From: an archaeon
GTDB taxonomy: Archaea; Iainarchaeota; Iainarchaeia; Iainarchaeales; JAAZKV01
Assembly (NCBI GenBank): GCA_041661245.1
Contig: JBAZUY010000002.1
Location: 178,153 to 242,152 of the forward strand
Reading direction: 5' to 3'
DNA: 64,000 bases
Shown: positions 29,146 through 36,351 of the stretch, in pieces
Position numbering within the stretch: position 1 is the first letter of the stretch
How the letters are laid out: each line of letters starts with the position of its first letter
Program-made: the position numbers and the translations under genes
Notes under the pieces: generated by a model
The model's input: only the letters and a program-made list of their open reading frames with translations
The model's database searches: none
What the model was told of the DNA's origin: nothing

Positions 29146-29340
29146 TTAGAGCAATGTTGTTTCGGAGTTTAGAACGAATGTAGAAGAAATTGTTGTTGGC
29201 GGACTTAAATTAAAGGTAACTGCTTGTACTTTTGGAAAATAAATATCAGAAACTGCAACAAAACTTAATCCACAAACTTTTGGAAAGTAAATATCTGAAA
29301 CTGCAACAAAACTAATTGCTTGAATTTGTGGGTCCGCCAT
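29146..29340 (-). CDS. 3-repeat micro-protein partner of the beta-helix gene
   Basis: 64 aa with units PQIQAISF, PKVCGLSF and PKVQAVTF and the tail SPPTTISS...NSETTLL. It starts 2 nt after the upstream stop. Confidence 0.6.
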   Translation of the reverse strand: MADPQIQAISFVAVSDIYFPKVCGLSFVAVSDIYFPKVQAVTFNLSPPTTISSTFVLNSETTLL

Positions 29341-29342
29341 AA

Positions 29343-30668
29343 TTATGCACTCACATCATCGTTCCTTAAAGTTAATTTAACTTGCGCATATCTAGCTGGT
29401 GCAGGAGTAAATGGACAATTTATTTTTACTTCCGTCCAATCAGGCGAGGCAGCATCTTGATCAAATGAAGTAACACTCATCCTAATCTCTGCGGTTTGAT
29501 AATTCGGAGCTGTGTCAGTTTTTGTTTTATCAACCATGCTCGTGCCCCAAGTTTGAATTGAAGCCAAATTAAATTGGGTAACAAACTGAATAGAACCTAA
29601 ATCATATACAGGGGACCAAATTACTCCACTTGTTCCGCTTGTTAATTCAAAAAACCCAGTTGTCCCATTCTTTGTAACATTCCCATCCGGATTGTACCAA
29701 CCAGAATTATCCGCACTCGCAGAAATAATCCATTTAGAATCAGGATTATAATTCGCCCCTCGTGCAATACTACTATAAGGATACGCACCATAATCCCCAG
29801 TGCTTGACAAAAAGAAAACATTATTTGCAGGATCAATCATATTTGGATTTGTTGAAAAACCTTGTAACTCAGAACTAATTGCTTGAACTGCCTCCAAAGT
29901 CGTATATGTTGTATTGTAAATGTAAAGTAAATTTGTGCAATTATAATAACTATTATAATTACAAGTGCCTCCTGGATTAACATTACCTGCATGCCTATAC
30001 CCTGTAGTGCAAGTGTGGAAAATATTTCTATAAGCTCCAATCAATGAACCATAGGTTATCATGATATAAATTCCATGCCCGCAATTGTAAAATGTATTAT
30101 AGATTGCATTAATCATTCCAGTCCCTGCAGACACCCCTCCTTTTATTGCAAAATCTGAAAAATCTTTGAAAGTACAATAAGAAATATTAAGCGTTGAAAG
30201 ATTACCGGTGCCTGCAGCTATGCTAATCCCAACGGTGTTATCCGTAGACCCATACAATTCTAAATAGGATAAATTGTGAACTTTCCCCACATTTGCCATA
30301 AGTTTAATTAGTCCCACTGTAGCAGAATTAACATTATGATTTTTTATAATCCACTTTCCGCCAGTAGAATGTTTTGTCATATCCAGATTATTTGAACTAA
30401 GTGACACCCCATCAATAGCTGATCCAGTCCCAATTAATCCAGCACCATCAAGAACAACCACTCCATCAGCGTACAAATAATAAGTTTTAGCGGCCAAAGT
30501 TATTCGCTCATTATAAGAACCCGAACCAACAATTAATGAATCCCCTGTAGCCATCGCAGTAATCCCTGCTTGAATAGTTAACTTTGGTCCAGTTGTTCCA
30601 CTGACAAAAATTTGTGAAGTCCCATCATAAGTATTACTTCCACTTTTGTTTACATACAAAATTGCCAT
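29343..30668 (-). CDS. right-handed beta-helix protein, subfamily A (no signal peptide), conserved C-terminal discoidin-like jelly-roll
   Basis: Starts MAILYVNKSGSNTYDGTSQ..PKLTIQAG. Contains NTFYNCGHG and NIFHTC repeats. C-terminus is GWYNPDGNVTKNGTTGFFEL...RYAQVKLTLRNDDVSA. A TAA stop lies directly upstream of the ATG. Confidence 0.7.
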   Translation of the reverse strand: MAILYVNKSGSNTYDGTSQIFVSGTTGPKLTIQAGITAMATGDSLIVGSGSYNERITLAAKTYYLYADGVVVLDGAGLIGTGSAIDGVSLSSNNLDMTKHSTGGKWIIKNHNVNSATVGLIKLMANVGKVHNLSYLELYGSTDNTVGISIAAGTGNLSTLNISYCTFKDFSDFAIKGGVSAGTGMINAIYNTFYNCGHGIYIMITYGSLIGAYRNIFHTCTTGYRHAGNVNPGGTCNYNSYYNCTNLLYIYNTTYTTLEAVQAISSELQGFSTNPNMIDPANNVFFLSSTGDYGAYPYSSIARGANYNPDSKWIISASADNSGWYNPDGNVTKNGTTGFFELTSGTSGVIWSPVYDLGSIQFVTQFNLASIQTWGTSMVDKTKTDTAPNYQTAEIRMSVTSFDQDAASPDWTEVKINCPFTPAPARYAQVKLTLRNDDVSA

Positions 30669-30688
30669 TTAAACATCACAAAATCTTA

Positions 30689-34028: not shown

Positions 34029-34057
34029 TCATTATCACTTCAAATTAATACTTTCAA

Positions 34058-34255
34058 CTATTTTAAATTTGCATTTGAACTTATTGTTAGTTCACTTGCA
34101 AAAAATGTTACGCCCATTTCGCTTAATGGCCCTGACCAGAAAGTAAATGCTTTAAGCACGGGGGCTTGATCATTTTGCAAATTAAAACTCTTCAATGAAG
34201 GAACTATTTCTGTTTGTAAGTTAAATGCTTTCAATTGAGGATTAACCATAATCAT
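34058..34255 (-). CDS. 3-repeat micro-protein partner
   Basis: 65 aa with units PQLKAFNL, PSLKSFNL and PVLKAFTF. Its start overlaps the upstream stop (ATGA). Confidence 0.55.
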   Translation of the reverse strand: MIMVNPQLKAFNLQTEIVPSLKSFNLQNDQAPVLKAFTFWSGPLSEMGVTFFASELTISSNANLK

Positions 34256-36351
34256 GCCTCCGCATCATCGGATCTAAATGTTAATCTTAATTGAACAAAT
34301 CTTCCAACAATTGGACTAATTGGTTGCTCGGTTTTAACTTCAGTCCACGCAGGAGAAACAGCATTTTGTGCAAAAGTGACTCCACTCCCTCTAATTTCTA
34401 CTGTTTGATAATTAGGTTTTGTATCAGTTTTTGTTGTATCAATCATGCTTACCCCCCATGTTTGATCAACAGCTAAATTAATTCTTCTAATCGCTTGAAC
34501 ACTAGTCAAATCATAAACTGGAGAAACAACAACTCCAACTGAACCACTTGACAATTCCAAAAAACCAGTAGAACCATTCTTTGCAACACTACCATCGCTA
34601 CAATACCAACCACTATTATCAGCAACACTACCTACAACCCAACTAGCATCAGAATTATTTGAACCAGTAGTAAAACCAAAAGGAATTGCCCCTTGAGAGC
34701 GCCCCAAAGAAGAAATAACTTTCTTATACAAAATGCTTCTAGCAGAATCAATAAACTGTGGATCCTCCACAATACTTGTTAATTCATAACCCGCTGCTTG
34801 TGCATCTTCAAGAGTGGTATAAGTAGAAGCAACTTTTTTCCAGTTTGTTATAGAATGAAATTGATTTTTGTCACTAATAACCCCAGTTACATCTCGAACA
34901 ATATTCCAAGCAGTTACAAATGTAGAAAAGATATTGTTTGAAAGAATCACATAATTTGAATAAGTCGTAGTTGATGAGGGATTGTCATAATAAATTGCGG
35001 TTGTGCCATTGTAGAAAGTACAATTGTATATTCGATAGGTTTTTGTTGCTTGCCCCGTACTATAATGATAAACTGCAGTTGGAAATCCCGAGAAAATACA
35101 ATTGCCCATTGTTACGGCTGAGTTTGGGGCAGTAGAAGTATAATAGTACAAACCATACTGGTTTGAATTACTATACAGTTCAACATTACTAATAATTGCA
35201 GTTACATTCGAGGACCCATAATTAGTAATTAATGAATCAGCACTATAATTTTGAATTATCCATTTTCCACCAGTATCATTAACTGCACTTATAGTTTGAG
35301 TAGAAGATTGAACATTAAACATAGTAATGGCCGGGCCATAACTTAACCCAGTCCCGTCTAAAATAACGGTCCCATCTGCATTCAAACTGCAAACGGCACC
35401 AGTTCCTGAAAAAGAAATTTTTTCATTATATGCTCCCGAACCAACAATAACATTAGTGCCCGAAACTGTTGCTGCACTTAATCCTGCTTGAATTGTTAAT
35501 TTTGCAGATGTAGAAGAAAACCCATTATTAGAGTCTGAACCGGATTTGTTTACATAAATTACTCCATTCCAACAAGAATTAAATGTGGAACCAGAGTTAT
35601 CACAATTTGCACCTAAAGCCTTCCATCCGGAGTAAGAATATCTGCTCCCATAAGTCCAACCATTCACATTAGTATAAGTGTTATTTGCAAAAACATTACT
35701 CCCCATACCTGCGGCATTACTTGAAATAAAATTAGAAGTACAATTAGTCACTGTATTCCCAGTAAAATTCATTCCGCTCATATTACCGTTGAATGTTATT
35801 GCGGTTGGATTGTTTGTATATGTACTCCCAAATATGGCATACGATCCCCCCGCAGTGTATAATGCGGATGTCAAAAAATTAGTGAATGTACAGCCGGTTT
35901 GGTTGTAGACCAAATAGTTACCTGCACTGCTGTTTACCCCATAAGTGTTAGCGTTACTTGTAAAAGTTGTATTTGCAAAAGTTATTGTTTGAGCAGCCGT
36001 TGCTCCAAGAGTCACTAAACTTGCTCCAGAGTATTTTTTAAATTCCCAAGTCCCACTTGTACTTGGTTTTGATTGAAAAGTTATTGCTCTGCCTCCGGTG
36101 GTTGTGCTTATTGCTACTGCGGGAGTGGTTAGCGCCCCAATTGTTCCGTCAAGAATTACAACCCCTGATGCATTAAATATTAAACTTGTGTCCCCAATAA
36201 CTAATTTTTCATTATATGTTCCTGCCGCAACTTCTATAGTATCATTTGCACTTGCAACACTTATCCCTTTTGAAATTGTCAAGTAAGGATTTCCACTACT
36301 CCCATCCCCAGTAGTATCATTCCCTGTTGTTGAAATATATTTAGTAGCCAT
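34252..36351 (-). CDS. double-module right-handed beta-helix protein, subfamily A (no signal peptide)
   Basis: 699 aa. First cap is MATKYISTTGNDTTGDGSSGNPYLTI. A second internal cap, VIYVNKSGSDSNNG..AKLTIQAG, occurs at about aa 265. C-terminus is ...RFVQLRLTFRSDDAEA. Confidence 0.7.
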   Translation of the reverse strand: MATKYISTTGNDTTGDGSSGNPYLTISKGISVASANDTIEVAAGTYNEKLVIGDTSLIFNASGVVILDGTIGALTTPAVAISTTTGGRAITFQSKPSTSGTWEFKKYSGASLVTLGATAAQTITFANTTFTSNANTYGVNSSAGNYLVYNQTGCTFTNFLTSALYTAGGSYAIFGSTYTNNPTAITFNGNMSGMNFTGNTVTNCTSNFISSNAAGMGSNVFANNTYTNVNGWTYGSRYSYSGWKALGANCDNSGSTFNSCWNGVIYVNKSGSDSNNGFSSTSAKLTIQAGLSAATVSGTNVIVGSGAYNEKISFSGTGAVCSLNADGTVILDGTGLSYGPAITMFNVQSSTQTISAVNDTGGKWIIQNYSADSLITNYGSSNVTAIISNVELYSNSNQYGLYYYTSTAPNSAVTMGNCIFSGFPTAVYHYSTGQATKTYRIYNCTFYNGTTAIYYDNPSSTTTYSNYVILSNNIFSTFVTAWNIVRDVTGVISDKNQFHSITNWKKVASTYTTLEDAQAAGYELTSIVEDPQFIDSARSILYKKVISSLGRSQGAIPFGFTTGSNNSDASWVVGSVADNSGWYCSDGSVAKNGSTGFLELSSGSVGVVVSPVYDLTSVQAIRRINLAVDQTWGVSMIDTTKTDTKPNYQTVEIRGSGVTFAQNAVSPAWTEVKTEQPISPIVGRFVQLRLTFRSDDAEA

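Follow-up and report, generated by a model that had tools for sequence, protein, structure and literature searches.

Receptor-binding proteins determine which cells are recognised by a virus or by an attaching symbiont, and they are the parts most often engineered. In a 64,000-nucleotide (nt) stretch of archaeal DNA (the window, with open reading frames (ORFs) taken from a six-frame listing), genes for beta-helix proteins of a single family stand in tandem cassettes (cluster 1, 29146-36351), in which each gene is followed directly by a very short one (the micro-ORF, encoding a micro-protein of repeated units). The arrangement is probably a two-gene module, repeated in the manner of an operon, which came from the receptor-binding apparatus of tailed viruses, and in which the micro-protein acts on its neighbour by binding to it, either as an adaptor or strap or as a chaperone. 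The comparisons given below, in which L numbers denote other loci and P numbers denote proteins from the searches, establish that this module has homologues, that its gene order is conserved, that the micro-ORF is coding and that the setting of the homologues is viral. A micro-protein that is strictly linked to one family of tailspikes would be a concrete missing component of spike assembly or attachment.

All genes of the four cassettes lie on the minus strand. The beta-helix genes encode proteins of 699 amino acids (aa; 34252-36351), 516 aa (32478-34028), 452 aa (30883-32241) and 441 aa (29343-30668), and the micro-ORFs that follow them encode proteins of 63 aa (34058-34249), 70 aa (32263-32475), 63 aa (30689-30880) and 64 aa (29146-29340), i.e., all eight ORFs that the preliminary description of this DNA had reported are present. 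The hidden Markov model (HMM) of the beta-helix family matches the 699-aa protein (E 1.7e-186; homologues P0020 and P0033) as well as the 516-aa and 441-aa proteins; the 452-aa copy was the one used for structure prediction. A second cluster (41339-45784), outside the region described at first, comprises three further paralogs on the same strand (44474-45784, 43152-44456 and 41815-43134; family HMM E 1e-153 to 1e-173). These are separated by 17-nt gaps, neither of which holds a micro-ORF; 5 nt past the stop of the last paralog there begins a 156-aa ORF with nine units (41339-41809, minus strand). A solitary pair of beta-helix gene and micro-ORF is found on another contig, L008, between ftsZ and the nusG-L11-L1-L10-L12 operon, and this contig appears to belong to the same genome as the window; its protein P0015 has a second record, on a contig of 305,976 bp, and proteins of the window have such a record too. 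Including L008, there are 8 beta-helix copies and 6 micro-protein genes, every one with an intact reading frame; the beta-helix paralogs are about 40-55% identical to one another.

Each beta-helix protein has a conserved N-terminal cap, a divergent helix body and a conserved C-terminal beta-sandwich. The 699-aa copy carries an extra N-terminal beta-helix module (MATKYISTTGND...) ahead of the canonical unit, which starts with VIYVNKSGSD. For all four cassette genes there is an in-frame stop 1-4 codons upstream of the ATG (3 codons in the case of 34252-36351), together with a Shine-Dalgarno-like motif (GGTGA or GTGAT). Thus, the N-terminus MA[ITV]xY[VI]NKSG is fixed, and moving the start does not restore a signal peptide, just as the preliminary description had argued. 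Probably, the beta-helix proteins lack one because their ancestors were components of virions, which fold and assemble in the cytoplasm.

The micro-proteins of the four cassettes each contain three core units of the form h-[KQ]-[AG]-h-x-h (LxxLxL), mostly with a Pro ahead, repeated with a period of 13-20 residues. In the product of 29146-29340 two of the units are nearly identical duplicates, in that of 30689-30880 the period is 16 residues, and in that of 32263-32475 it is 19-20. Across the family the unit can be written P-x-h-[KQ]-[AG]-h-x-h, the pattern of a short amphipathic beta-strand, and there is a conserved tail at the end of the protein. The number of units varies from 3 to 9, with a mode of 3; the earlier statement that there are exactly three therefore holds for the four cassettes and not for the family as a whole. 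The micro-proteins P0044 and P0045 are near-identical but for a single 13-residue unit (VTSGPRLKAFQLQ), which is a sign of recent repeat expansion or contraction and implies that the number of units changes in this way.

The micro-ORFs at 29146-29340, 30689-30880 and 32263-32475 start 2 nt past the upstream stop (TAA-TT-ATG, TAG-TT-ATG and TAA-TC-ATG). The preliminary description had given the fourth an ATGA overlap with the upstream gene; from the homologous start (MVNPQ, ATG at 34249) its junction reads TGA-TT-ATG, again with a spacing of 2 nt. A listed alternative start at 34255 would add two residues, and gene callers report the 63-aa form (P0055). Across all loci the micro-proteins share the start MA[ND](E)P[KQR]hQ, and the micro-ORF on L008, which lies beyond a longer intergenic gap, has its own GGTGA motif ahead of it. 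As far as can be judged from the nucleotide sequence, translation of the micro-protein begins at a start of its own, in tight coupling with the beta-helix gene.

It might be argued that the micro-ORF is not a gene at all, i.e., that it is a chance ORF, repeat DNA, or a C-terminal extension of the upstream protein reached by frameshifting or readthrough. The one feature of the window that would suit such an explanation is that all five of its micro-ORFs share one frame (+2) with respect to the gene before them and begin 2-5 nt past its stop. Elsewhere, however, the gap from the beta-helix stop to the micro-ORF varies between -4 and +46 nt and each of the three relative frames is found, so the uniform frame in the window is best seen as inherited spacing and not as recoding. 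There is no slippery heptamer at the four cassette junctions, a scan for tandem repeats in the DNA detected none, and the ATG is conserved along with the MAN(E)P start. Pairwise ratios of nonsynonymous to synonymous change (dN/dS) lie between 0.10 and 0.55 in 10 of 11 pairs, a signature of purifying selection: the micro-ORFs of L005 and L015 have a dN/dS of 0.22, and the micro-proteins of L002 and L011 retain 77% amino-acid identity with saturated synonymous sites. Furthermore, an HMM built solely from micro-ORF members of other genomes was run on 650 six-frame ORFs of the window, and it retrieved exactly the five micro-ORFs (E 2.4e-12 to 2.5e-3, with 2.4e-12 for the nine-unit ORF and 8.5e-7 for 34058-34249; the next best ORF has 3.6). 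Since a profile from other genomes alone recovers just these five, the micro-ORFs are not chance ORFs, and the idea that they are something other than genes is effectively refuted. On this evidence from sequence comparison, the micro-ORF is a genuine gene family.

In addition to being conserved, the micro-ORF is linked to its neighbour. All micro-ORFs with a readable context (22/22) lie directly downstream of a beta-helix gene of the family, on over a dozen unrelated contigs; the cases come from the window, L001, L002, L004, L005, L008, L011, L012, L015, L019, L021, L024, L025, L027 and L029. The preliminary description had named the absence of micro-ORFs beside orthologous beta-helix genes as the observation that would speak against it, and the opposite is found. 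Their contexts are mostly viral. At L021/L022 the module accompanies a terminase GpA, a Mu-type portal with Mu F, and Phage_tail_S, and at L023/L024 a portal, an S78 prohead protease and an HK97 capsid. L001 and L004 are phage-like contigs of 143-222 kb, in which the module follows a fibre protein of more than 1000 aa (with collagen-like repeats in L001). L005 is a viral contig from IMG/VR, in which the array is followed by a small membrane protein with two segments, possibly a holin. In viral arrays of three or four paralogs there are two non-identical micro-proteins: an internal one with the tail ...WxNG...KPPxGK and a terminal one with GPTYWLNGQ.VGDLF...FID. Thus, a location in the virion structural module is observed for the homologues (L021/22, L023/24, L001/L004), whereas the copies in the window are on a cellular chromosome. 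The likeness to phage tail-fibre genes, which had been drawn as an analogy, turns out to be homology: the homologues lie in structural modules of tailed viruses, after large tail-fibre genes and with a micro-ORF of the same family next, and the predicted fold of the beta-helix protein has tailspikes among its matches.

That fold was predicted with AlphaFold2 (AF2) from the family alignment for the 452-aa copy, with a mean predicted local distance difference test score (pLDDT) of 79.7. The model is an all-beta solenoid of about 25 short strands with a C-terminal beta-sandwich, and in it the solenoid of a right-handed parallel beta-helix is recognised by Foldseek with probabilities of up to 1.00. 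The highest-ranking matches comprise tail fibres and tailspikes of phages (Agrobacterium phage 7-7-1, Klebsiella K2-2 TSP), many phage tail proteins in BFVD, PL6 alginate lyases, pectin methylesterases and a rhamnogalacturonan lyase. In a scan of the four cassette copies with PF13229, one copy scored 18.4 bits (cut-off 25.9) and the other three had no match; precomputed PF13229 matches exist for three homologues (P0005, P0010 and P0020). The C-terminal domain has no Pfam match, and Foldseek finds partial, low-probability matches to 3ggl, 3f2z (chitobiase C-terminal), 2zew (CBM16) and 2qqo (neuropilin b1b2), with E 0.2-0.4 and probability 0.3-0.6. The preliminary description had likened this domain to discoidin; judging by these partial matches to the model, that likeness is no more than plausible. 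The beta-helix family is small: a search of 5.8 billion proteins gave 36 clusters at E<1e-5. A tblastn search of 50,697 deposited phage genomes gave no match, which places the family in uncultivated viruses.

An insertion of about 95 aa after the N-terminal cap (ATRVFTVSG[LI]TI.PT.GATYTNNS...) is common to the protein of 32478-34028 and that of L004 10001-11551, both of which have 516 aa. The window contig and the L004 contig (222 kb) each have a GC content of about 34-35%. The shared insertion and the similar GC content together hint that the virus lineage of L004 and this archaeon exchanged genes relatively recently.

Two further observations concern the viral loci. Genes for a Cys-rich, HNH-like endonuclease lie between beta-helix paralogs in L002 (9169-10020, where the gene overlaps the start of the next paralog) and in L013 (3623-4669), both viral, and look like homing-endonuclease insertions in a receptor-binding array. 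In L002, a reading frame at 11335-14310 (+) has a micro-ORF-like N-terminus (two units and the tail GPTYWLNGQPVGDLF) that runs in frame into about 900 Ser-rich, low-complexity residues; here, gene callers put genes on the opposite strand instead.

The micro-protein itself is a new accessory family, absent from Pfam, PHROGs and the Protein Data Bank (PDB); the layout of the module, in which a small accessory gene comes after that of a receptor-binding protein, is a known one. The four cassette copies have no Pfam match at E<=10, 15 members have no PHROG match at E<0.1, and the best hit in a search of PDB sequences with the micro-ORF profile was NikA (E 0.06), which was judged spurious. An exhaustive profile scan of 1.84 billion representative proteins yielded about 15 true micro-protein clusters (48-156 aa), in none of which a further domain is attached, and the long matches in that scan were leucine-rich-repeat (LRR) proteins or unrelated tandem repeats. 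In the literature on small proteins downstream of tailspikes, and on DPANN archaea with tail-fibre genes and twin-arginine translocation (Tat), as far as searched, the micro-protein family is not described.

The LRR proteins in that scan deserve attention. Three true LRR proteins (P0060, P0062 and P0067) were caught at E of about 1e-5, the units carry the LxxLxL pattern, and one micro-ORF copy has a period of 20 residues; the micro-protein could accordingly be a miniature LRR or another beta-solenoid that folds by itself as a separate binding module. However, none of the Pfam LRR models matches it even at E<=10, and the conserved Asn position is missing from the units. The coil of an LRR requires a longer period than the 13-17 residues that most units have. 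Moreover, AF2 yields no fold: the product of 30689-30880, modelled alone, has a pLDDT of 60 and no secondary structure. A self-folding repeat protein is for these reasons very improbable.

The same result is what a protein that takes up its fold on a partner would give. The absence of a fold of its own, the amphipathic strand units, the conserved ends and the variation by whole units suggest that the micro-protein binds the neighbouring beta-helix protein. In the proposed mechanism, the beta-helix protein would be a right-handed beta-helix of the tailspike or depolymerase type, whose divergent helix body may determine specificity, and the micro-protein would act on it by physical contact. The strand units of the micro-protein could dock onto the beta-helix subunits by strand addition, and the micro-protein would thereby be either an adaptor or strap that staples the subunits to one another or onto a fibre, or a chaperone that holds them while they assemble.

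Between these two roles, a dedicated chaperone for folding or oligomerisation, acting transiently and absent from the final assembly in the manner of Tfa, gp38 or gp57A, is possible but rather unlikely. Like the genes of tail-fibre chaperones, the micro-ORF is small, tightly coupled and directly downstream of a receptor-binding gene, and the micro-protein lacks an autonomous fold. Nevertheless, it is unrelated in sequence to the known chaperone families, and a variable number of identical docking units suits a multivalent structural linker better than a chaperone of the catalytic type. Known beta-helix tailspikes, moreover, usually fold without a separate chaperone or make use of a C-terminal intramolecular one. 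On the strength of the unit pattern and the AF2 result, we infer that the micro-protein is a multivalent, strand-donating adaptor or strap; a transient chaperone is less likely.

The following points weigh against a module in which the micro-protein binds its neighbour. Several beta-helix paralogs have no micro-ORF directly after them (in cluster 2 of the window, L002, L005 and L012); perhaps one micro-protein serves several paralogs, or some paralogs need none. A distant pair in the window, 30689 versus 34058, has a dN/dS of 1.04. No natural fusion of a micro-protein with a beta-helix protein exists among the 1.84 billion representative proteins. Finally, the number of units bears no fixed stoichiometry to the number of paralogs or to three-fold symmetry. 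A fixed ratio of three units per trimer or per paralog was considered and discarded, as it fits the window (3, 3, 3, 3 and 9 units) and fails elsewhere (4-6 units, 2-3 per paralog); with 3-9 units and insertions or deletions of whole units, the notion that the micro-protein keeps to three units in order to match a trimer is not upheld.

In the window, each array of beta-helix genes stands behind a gene that joins a signal to the end of a phage tail fibre. The head gene of cluster 1 (36404-37153, minus strand, 249 aa) encodes a signal with a long n-region, the motif KRDSLKK, a Gly/Ala-rich h-region and a cleavage site between ANA and SG, fused to a tail-fibre C-terminal module that ends in ...DGYTIKQVVKALRNLGLLT. 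Over its C-terminal 116 aa the protein shares 44% identity with the end of the fibre, a collagen-like one, that is encoded upstream of the beta-helix gene in L001, and over its last 55 aa it shares 71% identity with a tail fibre of Cyanophage KBS-S-2A. The protein has 308 matches; among the best 120, 60 end in the same C-terminal tail motif, and a signal is present only on the window protein and on P0070, a relative with 70% identity. The P0070 stub is followed by a double beta-helix gene, the same order as in the window, and so the arrangement of stub and beta-helix is conserved rather than decaying. The C-terminal module of about 55 aa (...AGTAVNDASTFDGYT[IL]KQVVKALRNLGLL[AT]; 36404-37153 and P0077-P0128) is 75-88% identical across dozens of phage-fibre-like proteins, a degree of conservation that is unusual at the end of a tail fibre; the N-termini of the carriers differ and the proteins are otherwise unrelated.

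The head gene of cluster 2 (45794-46450, minus strand, 218 aa) has a signal of the same type (FRESLKKKALIAGAIGVGVIGLSGVANA before SG) with a different tail-fibre C-terminus, which is 38% identical to the C-terminus of the 1042-aa fibre upstream of the beta-helix gene in L004 and matches phrog_17312 ('tail protein', 1.7e-10); its signal region aligns with that of 36404-37153. A third gene (28482-29009, minus strand, 175 aa) combines a Tat-like signal with a phage virion-protein domain (phrog_35197, 5.7e-34; phrog_10330, 'virion structural protein', 4.8e-18), and it heads two beta-helix genes of another family (26694-28454 and 24774-26474). The signal motif is [ST]-K-R-x-S-L-K-K in two of the three head proteins and F-R-E-S-L-K-K in the remaining one, and a signal of this kind is limited to these three proteins in the window. 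With the TIGR01409 profile (cut-off 16.7 bits), the signal scores 15.4 bits in 36404-37153 and in 28482-29009; the profile aligns only at its positions 7-29, i.e., the h-region, and Pfam TAT_signal gives no match. The term 'Tat-like' is therefore suggestive only, as the match is below threshold and confined to the h-region.

The beta-helix proteins of the other family (24774-28454, minus strand) start with MAIYYVDxASGSD and match Pfam Beta_helix at 3e-14 and 2e-16. A 51-aa ORF (26537-26692) starts 1 nt past the stop of the first of them; it is probably spurious, because it has no repeat motif and there is no counterpart after the second paralog.

The genes for a Tat translocase are found between the two clusters, transcribed in the same direction and just downstream of cluster 2 and of a LamG-domain protein (40360-41211): tatA (40127-40321, minus strand; Pfam TatA_B_E PF02416, 1.2e-7) and tatC (39424-40122, minus strand; Pfam TatC PF00902, 5.6e-27). 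Both are above the Pfam gathering score, and they have NCBIfam matches (TIGR00945, TIGR01912 and TIGR01411) below the equivalog cut-offs. The LamG/concanavalin-like protein has an N-terminal hydrophobic segment. A gene for a Bro-N domain protein (38461-39423, +) is also situated between the clusters, on the opposite strand and adjoining a pilin-like gene (37714-38385, +). Class-III (type IV pilin-like) signals with QGT[IT]EYLV occur in several large proteins, encoded by that gene, at 20729-22513 (+), at 46440-47288 (minus strand) and at 11137-13119 of L008; the true starts of some of these ORFs are probably further downstream, because long, odd N-terminal extensions precede the motif.

Gene content indicates that the window is cellular archaeal DNA. 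Among its products are an XPD-type helicase, a class-V aminotransferase, a D-2-hydroxyacid dehydrogenase, GrpB and archaeal proteins with class-III (pilin-like) signals; scans of the window for Rfam families, tRNAs, promoters and terminators gave nothing informative. The archaeal copies could, in principle, be the decaying remnant of an integrated virus, with no function in the cell: every component has viral homologues, and the Bro-N gene between the clusters is of a kind typical of viruses and mobile elements. Against this, no capsid, portal, terminase or tail-tube family was matched among the window proteins scanned, and all 8 beta-helix and 6 micro-ORF frames are intact. At about 40-55% identity between paralogs, the duplications must be old and the copies retained. 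The fibre stubs have gained signal peptides, which the viral versions lack, the order of stub and beta-helix is kept in a relative at 70% identity, and one pair is flanked by ftsZ and the nusG-L11 operon. A decaying remnant is quite improbable.

Instead, it is proposed that the module was multiplied in the archaeon, set behind stubs composed of a signal and a fibre C-terminus, and co-opted as an apparatus for binding, or for degrading polysaccharides, that would be displayed on the cell surface. Such archaeal arrays would clearly exemplify how a cell co-opts the host-recognition hardware of a virus. Co-option by a cell with fibre stubs that bear a signal and lie beside tatA and tatC is unusual, and the stubs and the tat genes in one locus offer a possible route by which signal-less spikes that fold in the cytoplasm could reach the cell surface. 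A further step would be that a domesticated virus-type complex (stub, spikes and, as the strap between them, the micro-protein) is assembled in the cytoplasm just as in the making of a virion and exported in the folded state by the adjacent TatA/TatC, via the Tat-like signal of the stub, to serve as a surface organ for attachment or glycan degradation in a small-genome archaeon, possibly of the DPANN type. This step is speculative and, as a whole, unlikely; if true, it would be the first Tat-dependent display of a virus-derived adhesin complex, with a new class of strand-repeat adaptor.

Several known systems resemble parts of the module. LRR proteins have in common with the micro-protein the LxxLxL motif, often with Pro or Asn ahead; the period of the micro-protein, 13-20 residues in place of 20-30, and the lack of a match to LRR models set it outside that group. 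PAAR-repeat proteins, which cap the trimeric VgrG/gp5 spikes, are small, as are the micro-proteins of the cassettes, and in both cases three internal repeats in a monomer could suit a three-fold partner. Nonetheless, the micro-protein has no PAAR motif or Pfam match, it has 3-9 units and no predicted compact fold, and it does not belong to the PAAR proteins.

The tail-fibre assembly proteins, i.e., Tfa of lambda, P2 and Mu, gp38 of T4 and gp57A, are like the micro-protein in being encoded by a small gene that is coupled directly downstream of a receptor-binding gene, on whose product they presumably act. The preliminary description had likened the arrangement to tail-fibre genes with Tfa-like genes behind them; membership of Tfa (Pfam Caudo_TAP) or of another known chaperone family is not supported by the Pfam scan of the four copies and the PHROG scan of the 15 members. 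The micro-protein shares no sequence similarity with these proteins and is much smaller than Tfa; it consists of a variable number of short strand repeats, and its presumed partner is a spike of the beta-helix type, not a fibre.

The hypothetical export of the archaeal complex would have a precedent in the 'hitchhiker' mode of the Tat pathway (the HybO/HybC hydrogenase of E. coli, and DmsA/DmsB), in which, likewise, one member of a complex carries the signal and its partners are signal-less; that tatA and tatC lie in the window locus adds to the likeness. The signals in the window differ in having KR or FR rather than RR and fall just under the TIGR01409 cut-off, and the complex, which itself is presumed, has no cofactor cargo.

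A close parallel is with those tailspikes and depolymerases of phages in which a lectin-like C-terminal domain accompanies the beta-helix [Pseudomonas phage LKA1 gp49, PMC5701251; Klebsiella K2-2 TSP, 8iqe; Agrobacterium phage 7-7-1 fibres, 9rkv]. The beta-helix family of the window has only about 12-14% sequence identity to them and no match in the deposited phage genomes searched; it lacks the N-terminal domain that anchors tailspikes in the virion, beginning directly with the helix cap; both of its ends are conserved around a variable middle; and it has a repeat micro-protein as companion. Nevertheless, the two have in common a right-handed beta-helix with a beta-sandwich at its C-terminal end, the lack of a signal peptide, a location in the structural module beside tail-fibre genes, and divergent tandem paralogs.

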